The translations under genes were made by a program, and so were the position numbers. A stretch of DNA of 64,000 bases from a virus, in the IMG/VR virus record IMGVR_UViG_3300029922_000015, positions 64,001-128,000 of that record; one strand, written 5' to 3'. The notes beneath the pieces were generated by a model. It had not been told where the DNA came from, ran no database searches, and was given only the letters and a program-made list of their open reading frames with translations. This document shows, one piece after another, positions 4,089 through 24,176 of the stretch (its first letter is position 1; each line of letters starts with the position of its first letter).

Positions 4089-4695
4089 ATTCTATTTTAC
4101 TACAAGTTTTATCTGAAGTCAAGTTTTTTCTTACTAAAACTATCGAATCAATGAATTGTCTAATTTCCGCATCAGAAAAAATTCCCTTGGCTAAATTAAT
4201 TCCCATGCAAACAAACTGGACATTTCCTTGAATATATCCTAATTGCGAATCAATTCTATCTAAACTAGCGGAGTTAATTTTATTTTTCTGCGTCGGTTTA
4301 AAAGGAACTAGGGATATATAAGTGATAGAACACTTTCCTTGTTGCTTCTCCCATAAATCGAAAAGATATTCTAAGGTTAAATTGGTTTCTCCGTGTTTTT
4401 TTCTTTCTTTTGCTTTTCGTAAAAAATATCTAAAAGGAGAAAACTTATCATTTCTATTCAGTAAGCCTTGTTCCGATAGTTCTTTAATTCTAATTCGGGC
4501 CTTAACAAGATTTTGTTCTCTAAACTCAGGGGTTTGATATTGTTTTAAATGTCTGTAATTATCTTGACCAGAGCACTCGGGGGAACAATACGTTCGTCGT
4601 TTCTTTTTTAAATTTCTTTTATGCTCGCTAGGATTTCTAAAAAAATTATTTCCACAATTTTCACATTTTAATTCTATCAGGCTATTATGTCTCAT
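4054..4695 (-). CDS. HNH-type homing endonuclease with N-terminal zinc finger
   Basis: CENC..YCSPEC; QQGKC..SASLDRIDSQLGYIQGNVQFVC..IN.AK; start reassigned to the ATG after GTGTAA-N8. Confidence 0.85.
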   Translation of the reverse strand: MRHNSLIELKCENCGNNFFRNPSEHKRNLKKKRRTYCSPECSGQDNYRHLKQYQTPEFREQNLVKARIRIKELSEQGLLNRNDKFSPFRYFLRKAKERKKHGETNLTLEYLFDLWEKQQGKCSITYISLVPFKPTQKNKINSASLDRIDSQLGYIQGNVQFVCMGINLAKGIFSDAEIRQFIDSIVLVRKNLTSDKTCSKIEYDFRTIQPALG

Positions 4696-6825: not shown

Positions 6826-6844
6826 AATAATATTTACACTAAAA

Positions 6845-6923
6845 TGGTGGGGATAGTCGGGATCAAACCGACGCCGAAGCTTTGAGAGAGCTACATCCTA
6901 ATCAACTATTAGACGATATCCCC
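6845..6923 (-). tRNA. tRNA-Glu(CTC)
   Basis: AGCT-ct-CTC-aa-AGCT arm, CCA. Confidence 0.9.
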
Positions 6924-9960: not shown

Positions 9961-9970
9961 ATAAATTAAA

Positions 9971-10065
9971 TCATACAACGGCGCTTCGCCTCTCCAAGCC
10001 ACCCCACTAAGCCCGAATCGAACGGGAATGCTAGAACGCGCGTATGGCTGCTTTTCGTTATATGA
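9971..10065 (-). ncRNA. circularly permuted tRNA-like (YrlA-like) RNA
   Basis: 10-bp terminal stem TCATATAACG/CGTTGTATGA enclosing a CCCG-TTCGATT-CGGG T-arm, then a GCTT/AAGC D-like arm. Confidence 0.6.
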
Positions 10066-10068
10066 AAA

Positions 10069-10249: not shown

Positions 10250-10326
10250 TGGTTGCGCAGGATGGATTCGAACCACCGATTTCGACCTTATGAGGATCGC
10301 GAGATAGGCCACTTCTCTACCGCACT
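10250..10326 (-). tRNA. tRNA-Met(CAT), initiator-like
   Basis: ct-CAT-aa loop, A1xA72 mismatch, CCA. Confidence 0.85.
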
Positions 10327-10332
10327 ATTAAA

Positions 10333-10394
10333 TGGTTGCAGAGATTGGAGTTTCACCAATTTTCGAGGCTCATGAGACTTCGGTAAACTCTGCA
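10333..10394 (-). tRNA. D-armless tRNA-like RNA (CAT)
   Basis: TGCAGAG/CTCTGCA acceptor, 5-nt linker instead of a D-arm, ct-CAT-ga loop, ATTGG/CCAAT T-stem, ACCA. Confidence 0.7.
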
Positions 10395-10399
10395 TTAAA

Positions 10400-10549: not shown

Positions 10550-10629
10550 TGGTAGCCCAAATAGGATTCGAACCTACATATTATTCCGTTATGCTCCCAT
10601 CGCTTCGAAGGCGCGGTCAATATTGGGCT
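10550..10629 (-). tRNA. rearranged/D-armless tRNA-Arg(TCG)-like RNA
   Basis: AGCCCAA/TTGGGCT acceptor, ct-TCG-aa loop right after a short linker, canonical T-arm, ACCA. Confidence 0.7.
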
Positions 10630-11179
10630 ATAAAATTTTATAAAATCTACACCATTTTCTTACGGCATTATCAGAAACTCCATATTTCTTTCCCGCCGCC
10701 ACAAAACTATGATCTACTAAAAATAATTGTAATTCTTCTTTAGAAGGCCATAAAACTTTTCTTCGTTTTTCATCATAAATTTTAGTAAATTTATTTTTAT
10801 AACGCTTACGAAATTCTATATTATTTTCTCTAAGAATTTTTTTTATCCTATAATAACTATAACTAGATTGATTAATTTCGAGCTTAATCAAAATTTCATT
10901 TATAGAAATTCCGCTATTATATAAATCTAATACTATATTATAATCTATTTTCTTAGAGGACTTTTGATTATTGACATTCGTTGTTGGTTCTTGACTGTGG
11001 CAATTAGGACATAGAAATTCAACATTTTCTATCCTATGATCTTCTGATTGCCCATTTTTATGATGTAATTCTAAAGTTAGTGTTTTACCTTGCCACTCCC
11101 CTTTATTCCCGCATCGGCAAATATACGGAATCAAATTTTCCCGTAATATTTTCTTTTTAAAAGTGCATCTCGAACTCAT
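10628..11179 (-). CDS. HNH endonuclease with C-terminal HTH
   Basis: LELHHKNG...DHRIENVEFLCPNCHSQ; GKKYGVSDNAVRKW. Confidence 0.9.
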   Translation of the reverse strand: MSSRCTFKKKILRENLIPYICRCGNKGEWQGKTLTLELHHKNGQSEDHRIENVEFLCPNCHSQEPTTNVNNQKSSKKIDYNIVLDLYNSGISINEILIKLEINQSSYSYYRIKKILRENNIEFRKRYKNKFTKIYDEKRRKVLWPSKEELQLFLVDHSFVAAGKKYGVSDNAVRKWCRFYKIL

Positions 11180-11499: not shown

Positions 11500-11576
11500 T
11501 GGTGGAGCATATCGGTATTGCGCCGATCTGATTCGAAGGTGCAAGCTTCGCGACCACCCTTGCAGTCCCATGCCCC
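11500..11576 (-). tRNA. tRNA-Ala(TGC)
   Basis: G3.U70, CGAAG-ct-TGC-ac-CTTCG arm, CCA. Confidence 0.9.
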
Positions 11577-12409: not shown

Positions 12410-12866
12410 CCAAAAACTTAAACAATTCTTTATTTTCTGTCATAAATACCCAACCGGACGTTCTATCTAAAGTGTCCGCGTATAAATCAACAAATCCCTG
12501 TCTAGTGCCATGAGGCTGTTCATTCTCTTGCAAATCTCTTCGAATAGCGGGAACAATATCGTCTCCGCGCATCGCCCAACTATCTCCATCTTTATGGGTT
12601 CGTCTGTCCGATAAATTTATATTGTCGGGCAACTGTCCAACTTTTTCTAAAGGAAAAACAGTCCCATAAGGAGCGCCTTGATCGTGATGATATTCAGTGA
12701 ATAAATATCGTTCGTTGAATTTCAATCTGATACCTATAAATCCTTCGTTTCCATCATAGGCACCTAAATCTAAATTTCTGCTACGGAGTTTATAAACGCC
12801 GCCCCTGACGCATTCCTTAAGGGGAATATAAGATTGATTATTCATCGCATTAAGGGGACTTTCCAT
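12390..12866 (-). CDS. hypothetical protein
   Basis: 158 aa ORF. Confidence 0.7.
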   Translation of the reverse strand: MESPLNAMNNQSYIPLKECVRGGVYKLRSRNLDLGAYDGNEGFIGIRLKFNERYLFTEYHHDQGAPYGTVFPLEKVGQLPDNINLSDRRTHKDGDSWAMRGDDIVPAIRRDLQENEQPHGTRQGFVDLYADTLDRTSGWVFMTENKELFKFLDEFYAS

Positions 12867-15063: not shown

Positions 15064-15137
15064 TTCGAGTGTGCGTCCGTACACCAAACGGGCAATCGCG
15101 TATTACCCTCGCCTGAATTGAACAGTTCCCTCTCGAA
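15064..15137 (-). ncRNA. probable permuted tRNA-like RNA
   Basis: TTCGAG/CTCGAA terminal stem, CTG-TTCAATT-CAG T-arm, GGGTAAT/ATTGCCC hairpin, GG-containing D-like loop. Confidence 0.5.
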
Positions 15138-15300: not shown

Positions 15301-15380
15301 CAACAAGAAATATCCTAAACCACTAGAAGACTCTTACTCCATGAGTAAGAGGATGGATTCGAACCACCGTCTTTTCTTTT
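15301..15380 (-). ncRNA. circularly permuted, anticodon-less tRNA-like RNA
   Basis: AAGAAA-agac-GGTGG-TTCGAAT-CCATC-CTCTTACTC-atg-GAGTAAGAG-tc-TTCT-AGTGGTTTA-GGAT-a-TTTCTT. Confidence 0.8.
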
Positions 15381-15388
15381 AAATCAAA

Positions 15389-15457
15389 ATCGTCAAGTGT
15401 TTTACTATTAAACTATGGCATCTAACCACCAAGGATTTGCACCTAGAACTCCTGACT
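15389..15457 (-). ncRNA. circularly permuted, anticodon-less tRNA-like RNA
   Basis: GTCAGG..T-arm (TGCAAAT)..TGGT/GCCA closed acceptor-TA-GTTT/AAAC D-arm-a-CTTGAC. Confidence 0.75.
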
Positions 15458-15462
15458 TTAAA

Positions 15463-15537
15463 TGGCACCCAAGCTTCGATTCGAACGAAGAACAGCCGTG
15501 TTAACAGCACGGAACTCTACCATTGAGCTACTCGGGT
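15463..15537 (-). tRNA. tRNA-Asn(GTT)
   Basis: CCGTG-ct-GTT-aa-CACGG arm, G73, CCA. Confidence 0.93.
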
Positions 15538-15548
15538 ATAAAATTTTT

Positions 15549-15695
15549 CCTTATCCGCGACAATTTAATTGCACCTTGTACCATTAGAATATGATAATAA
15601 CGCAGAACAATGCGTTCAACTTGAATAACTATTTGCAATCCTCGTCAAATGACGCGCCGACGCCAATGACTACTCCACTGTTTCACGGATAAGAA
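15549..15695 (-). ncRNA. unidentified structured RNA
   Basis: 11-bp terminal stem CTTATCCGTGA/TCGCGGATAAG filling an inter-tRNA slot; internal hairpins. Confidence 0.5.
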
Positions 15696-15697
15696 AG

Positions 15698-15774
15698 TGG
15701 TGCGCCTAGCAGGAGTCGAACCTGCAAAACCAAAGCTCTCGACCTTGTATGTATGCCAATTCCATCATAGGCGC
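15698..15774 (-). tRNA. tRNA-Leu(GAG), short variable loop
   Basis: Leu-type D-arm, tc-GAG-ag loop, 4-nt variable loop, A73, CCA. Confidence 0.85.
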
Positions 15775-15780
15775 GTAAAA

Positions 15781-15899
15781 CGATAAGCAAGTCAATATAC
15801 CCTCTCCTTGATCCTATATCTCCATCACAAACGCCTTACCGTTTGTACCGACGTAATAATATAGTCATGTTATGACTTATCAGAGCGATTAGCTTATCT
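15781..15899 (-). ncRNA. unidentified structured RNA
   Basis: GATAAGC/GCTTATC terminal stem; GTCAT/ATGAC and ACAAACG/CGTTTGT hairpins. Confidence 0.45.
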
Positions 15900-15903
15900 A
15901 AAA

Positions 15904-15989
15904 TGGTGCACCTAGAGGGAATCGAACCCCCACGCCTTGCGGCATACGATCCTAAGTCGTAAGCGTCTGCCTAGTTCCGCCACAGGTGC
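15904..15989 (-). tRNA. tRNA-Leu(TAG)
   Basis: TACGA-ct-TAG-ga-TCGTA arm, long variable arm, CCA. Confidence 0.93.
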
Positions 15990-15997
15990 ATTAAATT

Positions 15998-16075
15998 TGG
16001 TCGGGCTGGTGGGACTCAAACCCACGGTAATACTTGATCCCAAATCAAGCGCCATCGTCACTAGGCGACAGCCCG
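15998..16075 (-). tRNA. tRNA-Pro(TGG)
   Basis: C1-G72, CTTGA-tt-TGG-ga-TCAAG arm, CCA. Confidence 0.92.
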
Positions 16076-16085
16076 ATAAAATTAA

Positions 16086-16148
16086 TCCCGGTAAGACTGG
16101 AACTTACATATTTGGCTTTGTGGGCTTGCCTCTAATTGGGCTACGGGA
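16086..16148 (-). pseudogene. degenerate tRNA-like element
   Basis: 5-bp TCCCG/CGGGA acceptor, GCC/GGC D-arm, GTAAG-TTCCAGT-CTTAC T-arm, collapsed anticodon arm. Confidence 0.5.
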
Positions 16149-16151
16149 AAA

Positions 16152-16277
16152 TTACTTATAAAACAAACTAATCGCAATGTAAATTGCGACGAAATATTCG
16201 AAATTGGTATGACAGGATAACACTATCAAAAACCACAGTCCAATCTTGAACCAATGTAAAAATTTATTTTTGTCCAT
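16152..16277 (-). CDS. 41 aa membrane peptide (below the ORF-track cutoff)
   Basis: MDKNKFLHWFKIGLWFLIVL...; TTGACT-N17-TATAAT-N6-ATG. Confidence 0.65.
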   Translation of the reverse strand: MDKNKFLHWFKIGLWFLIVLSCHTNFEYFVAIYIAISLFYK

Positions 16278-16332
16278 TCTCTAATTATACGGTTTCCCCG
16301 ATAAAAAGTCAACTCGAAGTGTAATAAGAGTT

Positions 16333-16467
16333 ATGAACTCATTCGAACGTTGTGTTATCTATATCTGCTTGACTGTCTTGATGTTATCTATCCTACATAT
16401 CGCCGCCAGCGTTGGGCTTATGTATTTTCTAGCGTCTAATCAAATTCCGATTCCTACCGGACAATAA
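16333..16467 (+). CDS. 44 aa membrane peptide antisense to the tRNA array
   Basis: MNSFERCVIYICLTVLMLSILHIAASVGLMYFLASNQIPIPTGQ; GTGTAA-N8-ATG start. Confidence 0.6.
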   Translation: MNSFERCVIYICLTVLMLSILHIAASVGLMYFLASNQIPIPTGQ

Positions 16468-16469
16468 AT

Positions 16470-16544
16470 TGGTGGGCCATGACAATTACGATATGTCAAC
16501 TTACGGGTTAAGAATCCGTTACTCTTCCTTTGAGTTAATGGCCC
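16470..16544 (-). tRNA. tRNA-Lys(CTT)
   Basis: tt-CTT-aa loop, CCA. Confidence 0.88.
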
Positions 16545-16548
16545 AAAA

Positions 16549-16636
16549 TGGAGGACGCGACAGGATTCGAACCTGTGATGGCATTTACGCACGAGGTTAA
16601 AAGTCTCGTCTATTCGACCGCTATAGTAACGCATCC
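16549..16636 (-). tRNA. tRNA-Lys(TTT) with long variable arm
   Basis: ct-TTT-aa loop, 15-nt variable region, U73, CCA. Confidence 0.82.
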
Positions 16637-16641
16637 AAAAA

Positions 16642-16718
16642 TGGTAGCCGAAAAGGGAGTCGAACCCTTAAAATCGAAGATTTGAATTTCGCACGTATGC
16701 CAATTCCGTCATTCGGCC
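16642..16718 (-). tRNA. tRNA-Leu(CAA), short variable loop
   Basis: Leu-type D-arm, tt-CAA-at loop, 4-nt variable loop, CCA. Confidence 0.85.
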
Positions 16719-16724
16719 AATAAA

Positions 16725-16811
16725 TCGGAGCAAGTGTTTTGTTATTAAACTACCTCGGTTCACCATTTAAGGCGCAGGGGTGAGGAATAGATTCGGACTA
16801 TTATTTCTTGC
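16725..16811 (-). ncRNA. circularly permuted, anticodon-less tRNA-like RNA
   Basis: GCAAG-aaat-AATAG-TCCGAAT-CTATT-CCTC..GAGG-TA-GTTT/AAAC-a-CTTGC. Confidence 0.75.
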
Positions 16812-16815
16812 AAAA

Positions 16816-16886
16816 TCATCGTCAAGCATTTTACTATTAAACTATGGCATATAGCCACTAAGGATTTGCACCTAGAACTCCTGACT
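16816..16886 (-). ncRNA. circularly permuted tRNA-like RNA (paralog of 15389-15457)
   Basis: near-identical copy with TGGC/GCCA closed acceptor; overlaps the end of an HNH gene. Confidence 0.75.
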
Positions 16887-17424
16887 GAAAATTATTCGCT
16901 ACTAATATACAGAATCTAACAAATTCCTCTTGAGATTGAGCCATCTTCATTTCATTAATCTGTTTATGTACCCACTGGACATTATCTAATGTGTAGCCTT
17001 TGGAAGAATCCTTTCTATCTAAAGAGGCCGTTCTATCAAAAGCGGTACGCTTGGTTCCAAAAATCAAAGGCAATCCTGTTAAAGCACATTTTCCATCTTG
17101 TTTTAAAAATAAATTCCAAACTTGTTCTATAGAAATATCTAATTCTAAATTTCTAGATACTGCACCTCGTTTTAATACTGTCCAAAATGATTGGGATATT
17201 TCTTCGTATCCTTTCCAATCTTTGTGATTCTTACCTGTACGCTTAACTATACATCCACAACTTTTGGTTCTACATAACGAATCACTTCTAATATTTTTTT
17301 CAGACTTGCAAAAATTACATTTGCAGTTCCAAATCAAATGGCCTCTTGGACTTTTTCCGACGCACTCTAAAACAGTAATCGATCCGTACTGTTTACCTAT
17401 CAAATGAGTTTTATAATCTATCAT
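16858..17424 (-). CDS. HNH-type homing endonuclease
   Basis: QDGKCALTG..TASLDRKDSSKGYTLDNVQWVHKQINEMK. Confidence 0.88.
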   Translation of the reverse strand: MIDYKTHLIGKQYGSITVLECVGKSPRGHLIWNCKCNFCKSEKNIRSDSLCRTKSCGCIVKRTGKNHKDWKGYEEISQSFWTVLKRGAVSRNLELDISIEQVWNLFLKQDGKCALTGLPLIFGTKRTAFDRTASLDRKDSSKGYTLDNVQWVHKQINEMKMAQSQEEFVRFCILVANNFQSGVLGANP

Positions 17425-18123: not shown

Positions 18124-18151
18124 ATTATTCACACTTTGGGAAATTTGTCAA
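18124..18151 (-). promoter_or_regulatory. sigma70-type promoter of the leader/tRNA operon
   Basis: TTGACA-N16-AATAAT with TG extension. Confidence 0.65.
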
Positions 18152-18461: not shown

Positions 18462-18881
18462 TTATCCGTGGAATGCGTTGAATGTTGTATTGTAACTATC
18501 AAATAAATTCTTGATCTTCTCTGAACCGACAGGATTCATCGAGTGAACGTGAATCTCTGGAAGCTTCAAGCGATGGTGAAGACAATACTCGAAAAGGAAT
18601 TGGGCGCAGTGATAGCCAGTCTTTTCTTTGACCGAATCGTAAAACTTGTCTTCTCCTGTATAAAGAACGCGCCCACTAACATAAGCTTGATAATGCTCGT
18701 CGGCCAAATCGTGATCGAAGGAAACCTTTTCAGGAACTCCCTTATCCATGATCGTTTTACAAAAATCGTGGTAGTTCCGAACCACAAGAATATTCGTAAG
18801 GGGGAAGAACTTGTCTTCAAAGTCTCCCCACTTTACGTTCTTAGGTTCTCTAACGTCGTCAAGAAATAACTTATAAGACAT
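18462..18881 (-). CDS. cyclic-phosphate-processing receiver-like domain protein
   Basis: LFLDDVREP, SFDHDLAD, TGYHCA, HSMNPVG motifs. Confidence 0.8.
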   Translation of the reverse strand: MSYKLFLDDVREPKNVKWGDFEDKFFPLTNILVVRNYHDFCKTIMDKGVPEKVSFDHDLADEHYQAYVSGRVLYTGEDKFYDSVKEKTGYHCAQFLFEYCLHHRLKLPEIHVHSMNPVGSEKIKNLFDSYNTTFNAFHG

Positions 18882-23531: not shown

Positions 23532-24176
23532 TTAATTTTTTGCCCCCGCTAGTCTTTGGGCTTCACGATCCGCGTCTCTAAATTTCAATCCTTGTTCGTC
23601 TCCTGCGCGATAAGAAGTCAAAGAATCATTTATAGCATTATAAGAGCAAGAAACTCCACTAGCATTTGCAGCAAATGTCATGGCATTAGCTGTATTGATA
23701 TTTAAGCTTCTAGCAACCAAGAAGGAATCTTGATTTGCGCCCAAGAATACAAATTGCCAATTATATTTTTCTTGTTGAAGCTTGATCATCTCGGCTATTT
23801 GTTCTCTTCGGAATTCCTTAGAAGAATTCTCACCACCATCGGTAATAACCAAAATAAGAACTCGCGCGGGGCGTTTATTCTCTGGAAGCTTGGACAAACG
23901 TTCTCCAACGTTATTGATGGTCTTACCAAGGGCGTCGTACAAAGCCGTCCAACCACGAGGAACAAGATTTAAATTAGGAACTAACGCTAAAGGTCTATTC
24001 TCATATTCAACATCATAACGATCATCAAATTGATAAAGATTTACCAAAACTTCGTCTGTTTTTACTTTGCGTTGTTCGGAAATAAAAGTATTAAATCCTC
24101 CCTCCATATCCGTTCTAATACTAGACATAGAACCAGAACGATCCAAGACTACACTGACTAATGTTTCATTTTTCAT
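23532..24176 (-). CDS. von Willebrand factor A domain protein
   Basis: MIDAS motif LDRSGSM, TALYDA, ITDGGENSS. Confidence 0.92.
   Translation of the reverse strand: MKNETLVSVVLDRSGSMSSIRTDMEGGFNTFISEQRKVKTDEVLVNLYQFDDRYDVEYENRPLALVPNLNLVPRGWTALYDALGKTINNVGERLSKLPENKRPARVLILVITDGGENSSKEFRREQIAEMIKLQQEKYNWQFVFLGANQDSFLVARSLNINTANAMTFAANASGVSCSYNAINDSLTSYRAGDEQGLKFRDADREAQRLAGAKN

Follow-up and report, generated by a model that had tools for sequence, protein, structure and literature searches.

Sealed, permuted tRNA-shaped elements without an anticodon loop in the tRNA array of a large peat phage

What are the tRNA-sized stretches of a phage tRNA array that read as tRNA parts in permuted order and carry no annotation? 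The question is raised by IMGVR_UViG_3300029922_000015, a 149,934-bp IMG/VR virus record of an uncultured large peat phage (completeness ~75%, G+C 38.6%, standard genetic code), of which bases 64001-128000, a stretch of 64,000 nucleotides hereafter called the window, were analysed. Coordinates without a prefix refer to the window. An almost identical phage is present in several further peat metagenomes. The tRNA array lies on the minus strand, running from 17542 down to 1440, and contains 33 tRNAs and a tmRNA according to ARAGORN. Five elements of this array, here named A1, A2, B1, B2 and C and located on the same strand as the tRNAs, have the layout of a permuted cloverleaf. A preliminary description of this DNA had placed them at about these positions and in this order, which folding, re-permutation and a scan of the record confirm. 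All five escape annotation by ARAGORN and stay below the Rfam thresholds.

Read along the minus strand, the common order is the 5' strand of a closing stem, a 4-nt variable loop, a T-arm (5-bp stem, 7-nt loop), a hairpin at the acceptor position, 1-2 bases, a D-arm, 1-2 further bases and the 3' strand of the closing stem. The ends of each element pair in a helix at the anticodon-stem position, of 5-6 bp as had been described, and the acceptor stem is sealed by a loop. The absence of an anticodon loop and of CCA, also claimed earlier, holds for all five; every tRNA of the array encodes CCA. The cores, measured from closing stem to closing stem, are as follows.

15305-15378, minus strand: B1, with closing stem AAGAAA/TTTCTT, variable loop AGAC, T-arm GGTGG-TTCGAAT-CCATC, TC, and a D-arm with GG.
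15392-15456, minus strand: A1, with closing stem GTCAGG/CTTGAC, T-loop TGCAAAT and D-loop AATAGTA, 13 nt upstream of B1.
16821-16885, minus strand: A2, 93% identical to A1, its first 28 nt (5') overlapping the end of an HNH open reading frame (ORF).
16730-16811, minus strand: B2, with closing stem GCAAG/CTTGC, T-arm AATAG-TCCGAAT-CTATT, acceptor CCTC/GAGG (4 bp) and a 25-nt insert.
15064-15137, minus strand: C, with closing stem TTCGAG/CTCGAA, T-loop TTCAATT, acceptor GGGTAA/TTGCCC with a 7-nt loop, and a D-loop with GG.

B1 is the canonical member. Its acceptor hairpin has 9 bp without a mismatch and the 3-nt loop ATG (AUG), with no discriminator and no CCA, and its D-loop, AGUGGUUU, follows U8. 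All 24 of its 24 pairs are intact, and the nucleotides of the tertiary pairs are complete (U8, A14, G15:C48, G18G19, T54-U55-C56, T54:A58 and G53:C61). C is next best; it begins 2 nt past tRNA-Ile, ends 5 nt ahead of tRNA-Thr and has a weak T-stem with only three Watson-Crick pairs. A1, A2 and B2 deviate. Both A copies have four of five T-stem pairs, the T-loop TGCAAAT, a D-loop lacking GG and an acceptor of 4-5 bp with a 5-nt loop, while B2 scores 18.1 bits against the B1 covariance model. The statement that all canonical spacings are kept is accordingly correct for B1 and incorrect for A1, A2, B2 and C. Acceptor loops measure 3-7 nt, and none of the short loops holds a remnant of NCCA plus spacer. 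As for the tRNA-sized slots that the elements were said to fill, tRNAs do lie only 2-11 nt away (flanks overall are 2-13 nt, ended by tRNAs or by the partner element), but A2 departs from this picture through its overlap with the HNH ORF. The linker GAUUUUG after A is kept in both A-B pairs, and sub-threshold Rfam tRNA matches at 15352-15415 and 16786-16844 consist of the D-arm of A joined with the T-arm of B.

Re-permutation, which had been proposed as a check, was performed by joining core to core through CTGCAAA, a synthetic anticodon loop, and running ARAGORN on the product; in the controls (100 per element), the closing stem was retained and the interior shuffled. With default settings and trimmed variants (n=196), a tRNA was called in 116 cases for B1, 24 for C, one for A1 and none for A2 or B2, with zero calls among the 100 shuffled controls of each element. 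C, presented at first as the weakest element, thus ranks second. At -ps85 each of the five outscored 100 out of 100 shuffles, A2 and B2 being called only at this relaxed threshold. We also scanned ~107,000 stretches with a 5-bp closure on both strands of the 150-kb record. This recovered B1, C, A1, A2, the interior of a sixth RNA (9981-10039) and junctions containing real tRNAs, with only three stray loci outside the array. Taken together, the shuffle test and the scan show that the permuted tRNA shape is genuine and that it clusters in the array. At minimum energy, B1 and B2 both fold into four-way junctions with the parts in permuted order. The first version of a rigid structural descriptor was discarded as a detector, as it missed most elements.

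The same helices are built from unrelated stem sequences in A, B2, B1 and C, as in the T-stem, which is CTAGG/CCTTG in A and AATAG/CTATT in B2. A and B2 have an almost identical D-arm and 3' closing strand, and their 5' closing strands differ to match: between GTCAGG/CTTGAC and GCAAG/CTTGC, one base is lost per strand. A1 and A2 differ at five positions: pairing is kept at two (U-G to C-G and G-C to G-U), another two lie outside the helices, and the fifth disrupts the terminal pair of the T-stem. The A-type elbow is not random. T-loops of the type YGCAAWW occur in genuine tRNAs, including the tRNA-Ala of this phage, many phage tRNAs of IMG/VR and a tRNA-Thr of G003, a relative of 194 kb whose array has 27 tRNAs; the nearest records by DNA polymerase share only 42-46% identity. 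The G003 tRNA (L017:3807-3880, anticodon GGT, Thr) combines this T-loop with a D-loop lacking GG, and its D-arm matches those of A and B2. The resemblance of B1 to existing tRNAs is confined to 20 nt of T-arm, identical to that of tRNA-Met 10250-10326, and B1 is thus not a recent tRNA copy. The other halves of the elements showed no resemblance to the array tRNAs outside this T-arm.

The layout has a known counterpart in YrlA (RF02553; Chen et al. 2014, PMC4201824; preprint 10.1101/312249), which has the same succession of variable loop, T-arm, closed acceptor stem-loop and D-arm, with ends emerging at the anticodon-stem position and the anticodon loop missing; B1 and C also have the tRNA-elbow nucleotides. 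The tRNA-like domain of YrlA is modified and recognised like tRNA (PMC4201824). In contrast to YrlA, the elements have a closing helix of only 5-6 bp and are tRNA-sized units in a tRNA array, some as tandem A-B pairs. RF02553 (gathering score 69 bits), whose use had also been suggested, left all five unmatched at E <= 10 and at E <= 1, and neither the GNCGAAN0-1G Ro60-binding motif nor a long terminal helix was found in them; there is no room for a Ro60 handle because tRNAs lie so close. Searches with TROVE (PF05731) and DUF2828 (PF11443) profiles and tblastn with the DUF2828 protein of G003 were negative across the 150-kb record (~75% complete), so the reported lack of a Ro60 gene extends beyond the window. 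A YrlA member would be expected to have such a gene within about 4 kb, on its own strand. The elements are not YrlA members, and their earlier portrayal as non-chargeable tRNA-shaped RNAs with YrlA-type topology is supported. The array holds a further RNA, the one whose interior was recovered by the scan:

9961-10068 (interior 9981-10039), minus strand: sixth sealed tRNA-like module, a 108-nt RNA with a 10-bp terminal stem, whose interior passes the permuted-tRNA test.

No other RNA of the array is built in the YrlA style; RF02553 does not match this sixth module. Full-text literature searches returned YrlA and phage Y-like RNAs adjoining Ro60 (PMC4201824, PMC12135203, PMC7824862), and no account of sealed tRNA mimics that lack a handle and lie within the tRNA arrays of phages.

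The re-permutation test was extended to tRNA-array loci of other phages and of metagenomes, 1.2 Mb in all, and gave handle-less sealed elements at two places. Tunturiibacter phage Tunturi_5 has a tandem handle-less pair (L100:10540-10606 and 10610-10676, minus strand) inside its tRNA region, at about 250078-250214 of PP885688, which fills an unannotated intergenic gap (L100:10518-10682). The second place is the metagenome contig SDBV01001755.1, where a 71-nt sealed element with a 5-bp closing stem (L124:1429-1499, plus strand) lies exactly between two tRNAs. The survey also yielded several handle-bearing elements (L060, L030). On RF02553, handle-bearing elements of other phage arrays reached 42.7, 39.2 and 30.5 bits (range 25-43), scores that are significant and below the gathering score. 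The sealed design that recurs in these unrelated phages has an acceptor of 7-9 bp and a loop of 3-6 nt, with no CCA remnant in every clear case, which argues for a selected design over random decay of tandem tRNA genes. Two further observations belong to these loci: Tunturi_5 encodes RtcB and a CCA-adding enzyme, and L124:1588-1673 is a second element, with an ACAGT-type closure.

Sequence searches had a different outcome. Only tRNAs were matched by blastn in GenBank phages; exact and gapped patterns gave 0, 73 and 0 matches in IMG/VR, and the 30 of the 73 that were inspected were all tandem tRNA junctions. Eighty metagenome loci anchored on the tRNA-Gln D-arm belonged to unrelated phages and held no homologue. 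No B1-like element was found in G003 or in a further relative, G002, and the B1 covariance model was negative in three relatives identified by DNA polymerase. Contigs of four other peat metagenomes cover the elements with zero differences, a result that offers no covariation and is neutral for or against function. MAFFT alignments of the elements were inconsistent with structure.

Other stem-closed RNAs of phage tRNA arrays provide a second comparison. In G003, the gene order is a DUF2828 gene, a vWA gene and then the array, with four RNAs downstream whose ends have a handle in common, made of a stem and then ACAGCAA ('AGATCCGN-ACAGCAA'); two of the four have tRNA-like interiors. The window has an RNA of the ACAGY type.

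L016:4201-4309, 4508-4640, 6832-6896 and 12440-12507: handle RNAs of G003.
15550-15693, minus strand: 144-nt stem-closed RNA (CTTATCCG...CGGATAAG), with AACAGT after the 5' strand.

The interior of 15550-15693 is not tRNA-like, and the RNA resembles the handle RNAs of G003. It is the only RNA of the window that fits an outer stem of 8-10 bp, ACAGC(A)A and an A-rich 3' side; the five elements do not. Handle RNAs beside DUF2828 genes lie in phage tRNA operons, as the five elements do, and some have a sealed or scrambled tRNA interior (G003 L016:4508-4640; L060:3345-3415; L030:11243-11330), whereas the five elements lack both the outer stem and ACAGY, in a record lacking a DUF2828 gene. We found no publication on the DUF2828-linked handle RNAs of phage tRNA arrays. 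The stand-alone vWA protein (phrog_7371) is encoded at 23532-24176 (minus strand) of the window and at L016:1309-1992 of G003. Its gene directly follows the DUF2828 gene at the head of the G003 array, whereas no DUF2828 gene precedes it in this record. A split Ro60 upstream of the vWA gene was considered and rejected, since the ORFs there are not Ro60-like.

Our preferred reading, which we hold tentatively and at slightly less than even confidence, is that the elements are real small RNA genes encoding stand-alone tRNA-body mimics, that is, the effector module of a Y RNA without its Ro60 handle. They would be transcribed together with the tRNAs from an array promoter near 18151, with no strong terminator between. 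RNase P cleavage at the next tRNA, combined with 3' processing of the previous one, would release them as pieces of ~65-85 nt, and the GAUUUUG stretch that links A to B, which is conserved, resembles an RNase E site. The released RNAs would be stable because both ends are paired. With sealed ends, charging, decoding, cutting in the anticodon loop and attack from a free acceptor end should all be impossible; if these routes are closed, the RNAs could act only through the tRNA body, namely the elbow and the two helical stacks. Their role would then be to engage a factor that recognises tRNA shape, either by occupying it or by recruiting it, as the tRNA-like effector half does in a YrlA-type Y RNA. 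A more specific and unlikely proposal is that sealed tRNA bodies serve as a phage counter-measure: imitating a tRNA elbow or a host Y RNA's effector half, yet offering no end that could be cleaved or charged, they could titrate a host factor that reads tRNA shape and spare the tRNA supply of the phage. Possible targets would be a defence nuclease or sensor directed at tRNA, the partner of the host's Rsr-YrlA particle and, in host RNase P, the domain that recognises the elbow. If the RNAs are made and act alone, the tRNA-like module of Y RNAs would be a functional unit independent of Ro60, the long-open question of what this module binds would be narrowed, and a class of phage RNA missed by standard tRNA finders and Rfam would be added. 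Bench tests of the idea are feasible, since Tunturi_5, with its handle-less pair, can be grown on an Acidobacterium that is itself cultivable.

Several points weigh against the elements being functional tRNA-body mimics. Their folding energies are ordinary (z from -0.06 to -1.67), and the support comes from architecture rather than stability. A1, A2 and B2 are weak tRNA mimics. Because a cell contains so much real tRNA, an unspecific decoy of the elbow would be diluted out, unless the factor it targets has a preference for bodies that are sealed or lack an anticodon. The analysis identified no partner protein, and none of the RNA runs checked holds the stretch. The lack of sequence homologues in IMG/VR, GenBank phages, three distant relatives and the 80 metagenome loci precludes a between-species covariation test.

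The elements might instead be neutral relics, functionless spacers left to decay after tandem tRNA duplication and loss of the outer halves, an alternative that we consider possible, though doubtful. A remnant made of a 3' half and a 5' half would automatically read as a permuted cloverleaf, and junctions between adjacent real tRNAs do have the permuted order and score on the same models; dimeric tRNAs were noted as false positives by Chen et al. (PMC4201824). The T-arm that B1 has in common with tRNA-Met, the degeneracy of A1, A2 and B2, the failure to find homologues or covariation, and an array churned by homing endonucleases are all consistent with decay. Yet the elements, unlike tandem junctions, do not overlap real tRNAs, have neither CCA nor spacer and close on themselves. 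The lack of tRNA resemblance outside the T-arm implies that they are old, and B1 nevertheless has no broken pair. Loops of 3-7 nt with no remnant of NCCA or spacer, and the recurrence of the sealed design in unrelated phages, are likewise hard to reconcile with decay, and a permissive scan of 14.8-17.6 kb gave few other tRNA fragments, with one weak tRNA-like match at 16083-16150. Another reading, rather improbable in our view, casts the elements as genuine Y-RNA-type partners of a Ro60-like ring protein; this protein would bind without a canonical handle, and its gene would lie in the host genome or in the 25% of the phage genome that is missing from the record. The YrlA topology, the presence in one array of both the long-stem RNA 9961-10068 and the ACAGY-handle RNA 15550-15693, and the order of DUF2828, vWA and array in G003, with the vWA homologue kept in this record, would fit such a partner. 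The record has no TROVE or DUF2828 gene and no Ro60-like ORF upstream of vWA, five further loci holding vWA lack both tRNA arrays and DUF2828, and the elements themselves lack a GNCGAA-type motif, space for a handle and an RF02553 match.

Two explanations place the elements within the maturation of the array. The first sees them as structural punctuation acting in cis, whose compact folds would keep neighbouring pre-tRNAs from misfolding or stop exonucleases while the long array transcript is processed. The elements do fill tRNA-sized slots flush with tRNAs, on the same strand and with no strong terminator between, and stem-closed RNAs that are not tRNA-like occupy other slots, such as 15775-15903. 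A simple hairpin would suffice for this, and insulation does not need the T-loop, D-loop and tertiary nucleotides kept in B1 and C, so that we think this reading distinctly improbable. Permuted tRNA genes are known from Cyanidioschyzon merolae and other algae, where they yield real tRNAs, anticodon loop included, via a circular intermediate, the intervening acceptor sequence being removed by RNase P and RNase Z. As in the red algae, the 3' half of the phage elements is encoded ahead of the 5' half, and a cREC protein is encoded upstream of the array (18462-18881). The preliminary description had offered precursors that need ligation as an option: the ends would be ligated, the acceptor then opened and a working tRNA obtained. 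We find this hardly credible here. In contrast to the algal genes, the elements lack an anticodon loop; the flanks of B1 amount to 13 + 10 = 23 nt, with no 7-nt loop and no bulge-helix-bulge motif, and the acceptors are sealed by 3-7 nt, with neither discriminator nor CCA. No ligase was found: RtcB and Rnl2 are absent from the record, and a search of the record for Rnl1, run without a positive control, found none. A host RNA ligase is a possible substitute. All 20 amino acids are already served by the phage tRNAs.

Several other features of the array deserve mention. Its internal ORFs are homing endonucleases, among them the one that overlaps A2.

16858-17424, minus strand: HNH / endonuclease VII-type homing endonuclease ORF, with its stop codon inside A2.

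Rfam contributes two tRNAs beyond those of ARAGORN, with anticodons read as Glu-CTC (6848-6923) and Lys-CTT (16473-16544). The latter, on the minus strand, has a T-loop of 9 nt (TATCGTAAT) and is missed by ARAGORN. A non-canonical 77-nt tRNA-Ala(TGC) at 11500-11576 (minus strand), with G3:U70, encoded ACCA, the T-loop CGCAATA and an odd D-arm, was overlooked by both ARAGORN and Rfam and completes the tRNA set of the phage, which thus has roughly 36 tRNA genes; it is the count of this gene together with the ARAGORN and Rfam tRNAs that covers all 20 amino acids. The 139-aa cREC_REC protein just upstream of the array (18462-18881, minus strand; PF20274, E = 2.5e-19) had no close relative in IMG/VR or metagenomes. 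Its family is predicted to be a 2',3'-cyclic-phosphate esterase, elsewhere linked to RNA ligases (PMC7824862).

Two slots of the array hold RNAs of other shapes. The ORF-free slot 15775-15903 (129 nt, minus strand) is closed by GATAAGC/GCTTATC and contains two internal hairpins; it is not tRNA-like, and its family was not recognised. The 73-nt slot 10327-10399 (minus strand) contains a mini tRNA-like RNA with a 7-bp acceptor, a 5-bp T-arm (loop TGAAACT) and ACCA, with only ~27 nt in place of the D and anticodon arms. Finally, a strain variant in one other peat sample affects the T-stem of tRNA-Leu-GAG at positions 15709, 15713, 15721 and 15725. The sealed elements beside it are unchanged in the same sample, and the variant consists of two double changes, in which G49-C65 and G53-C61 both become A-U pairs, a clean compensatory change in a genuine tRNA.

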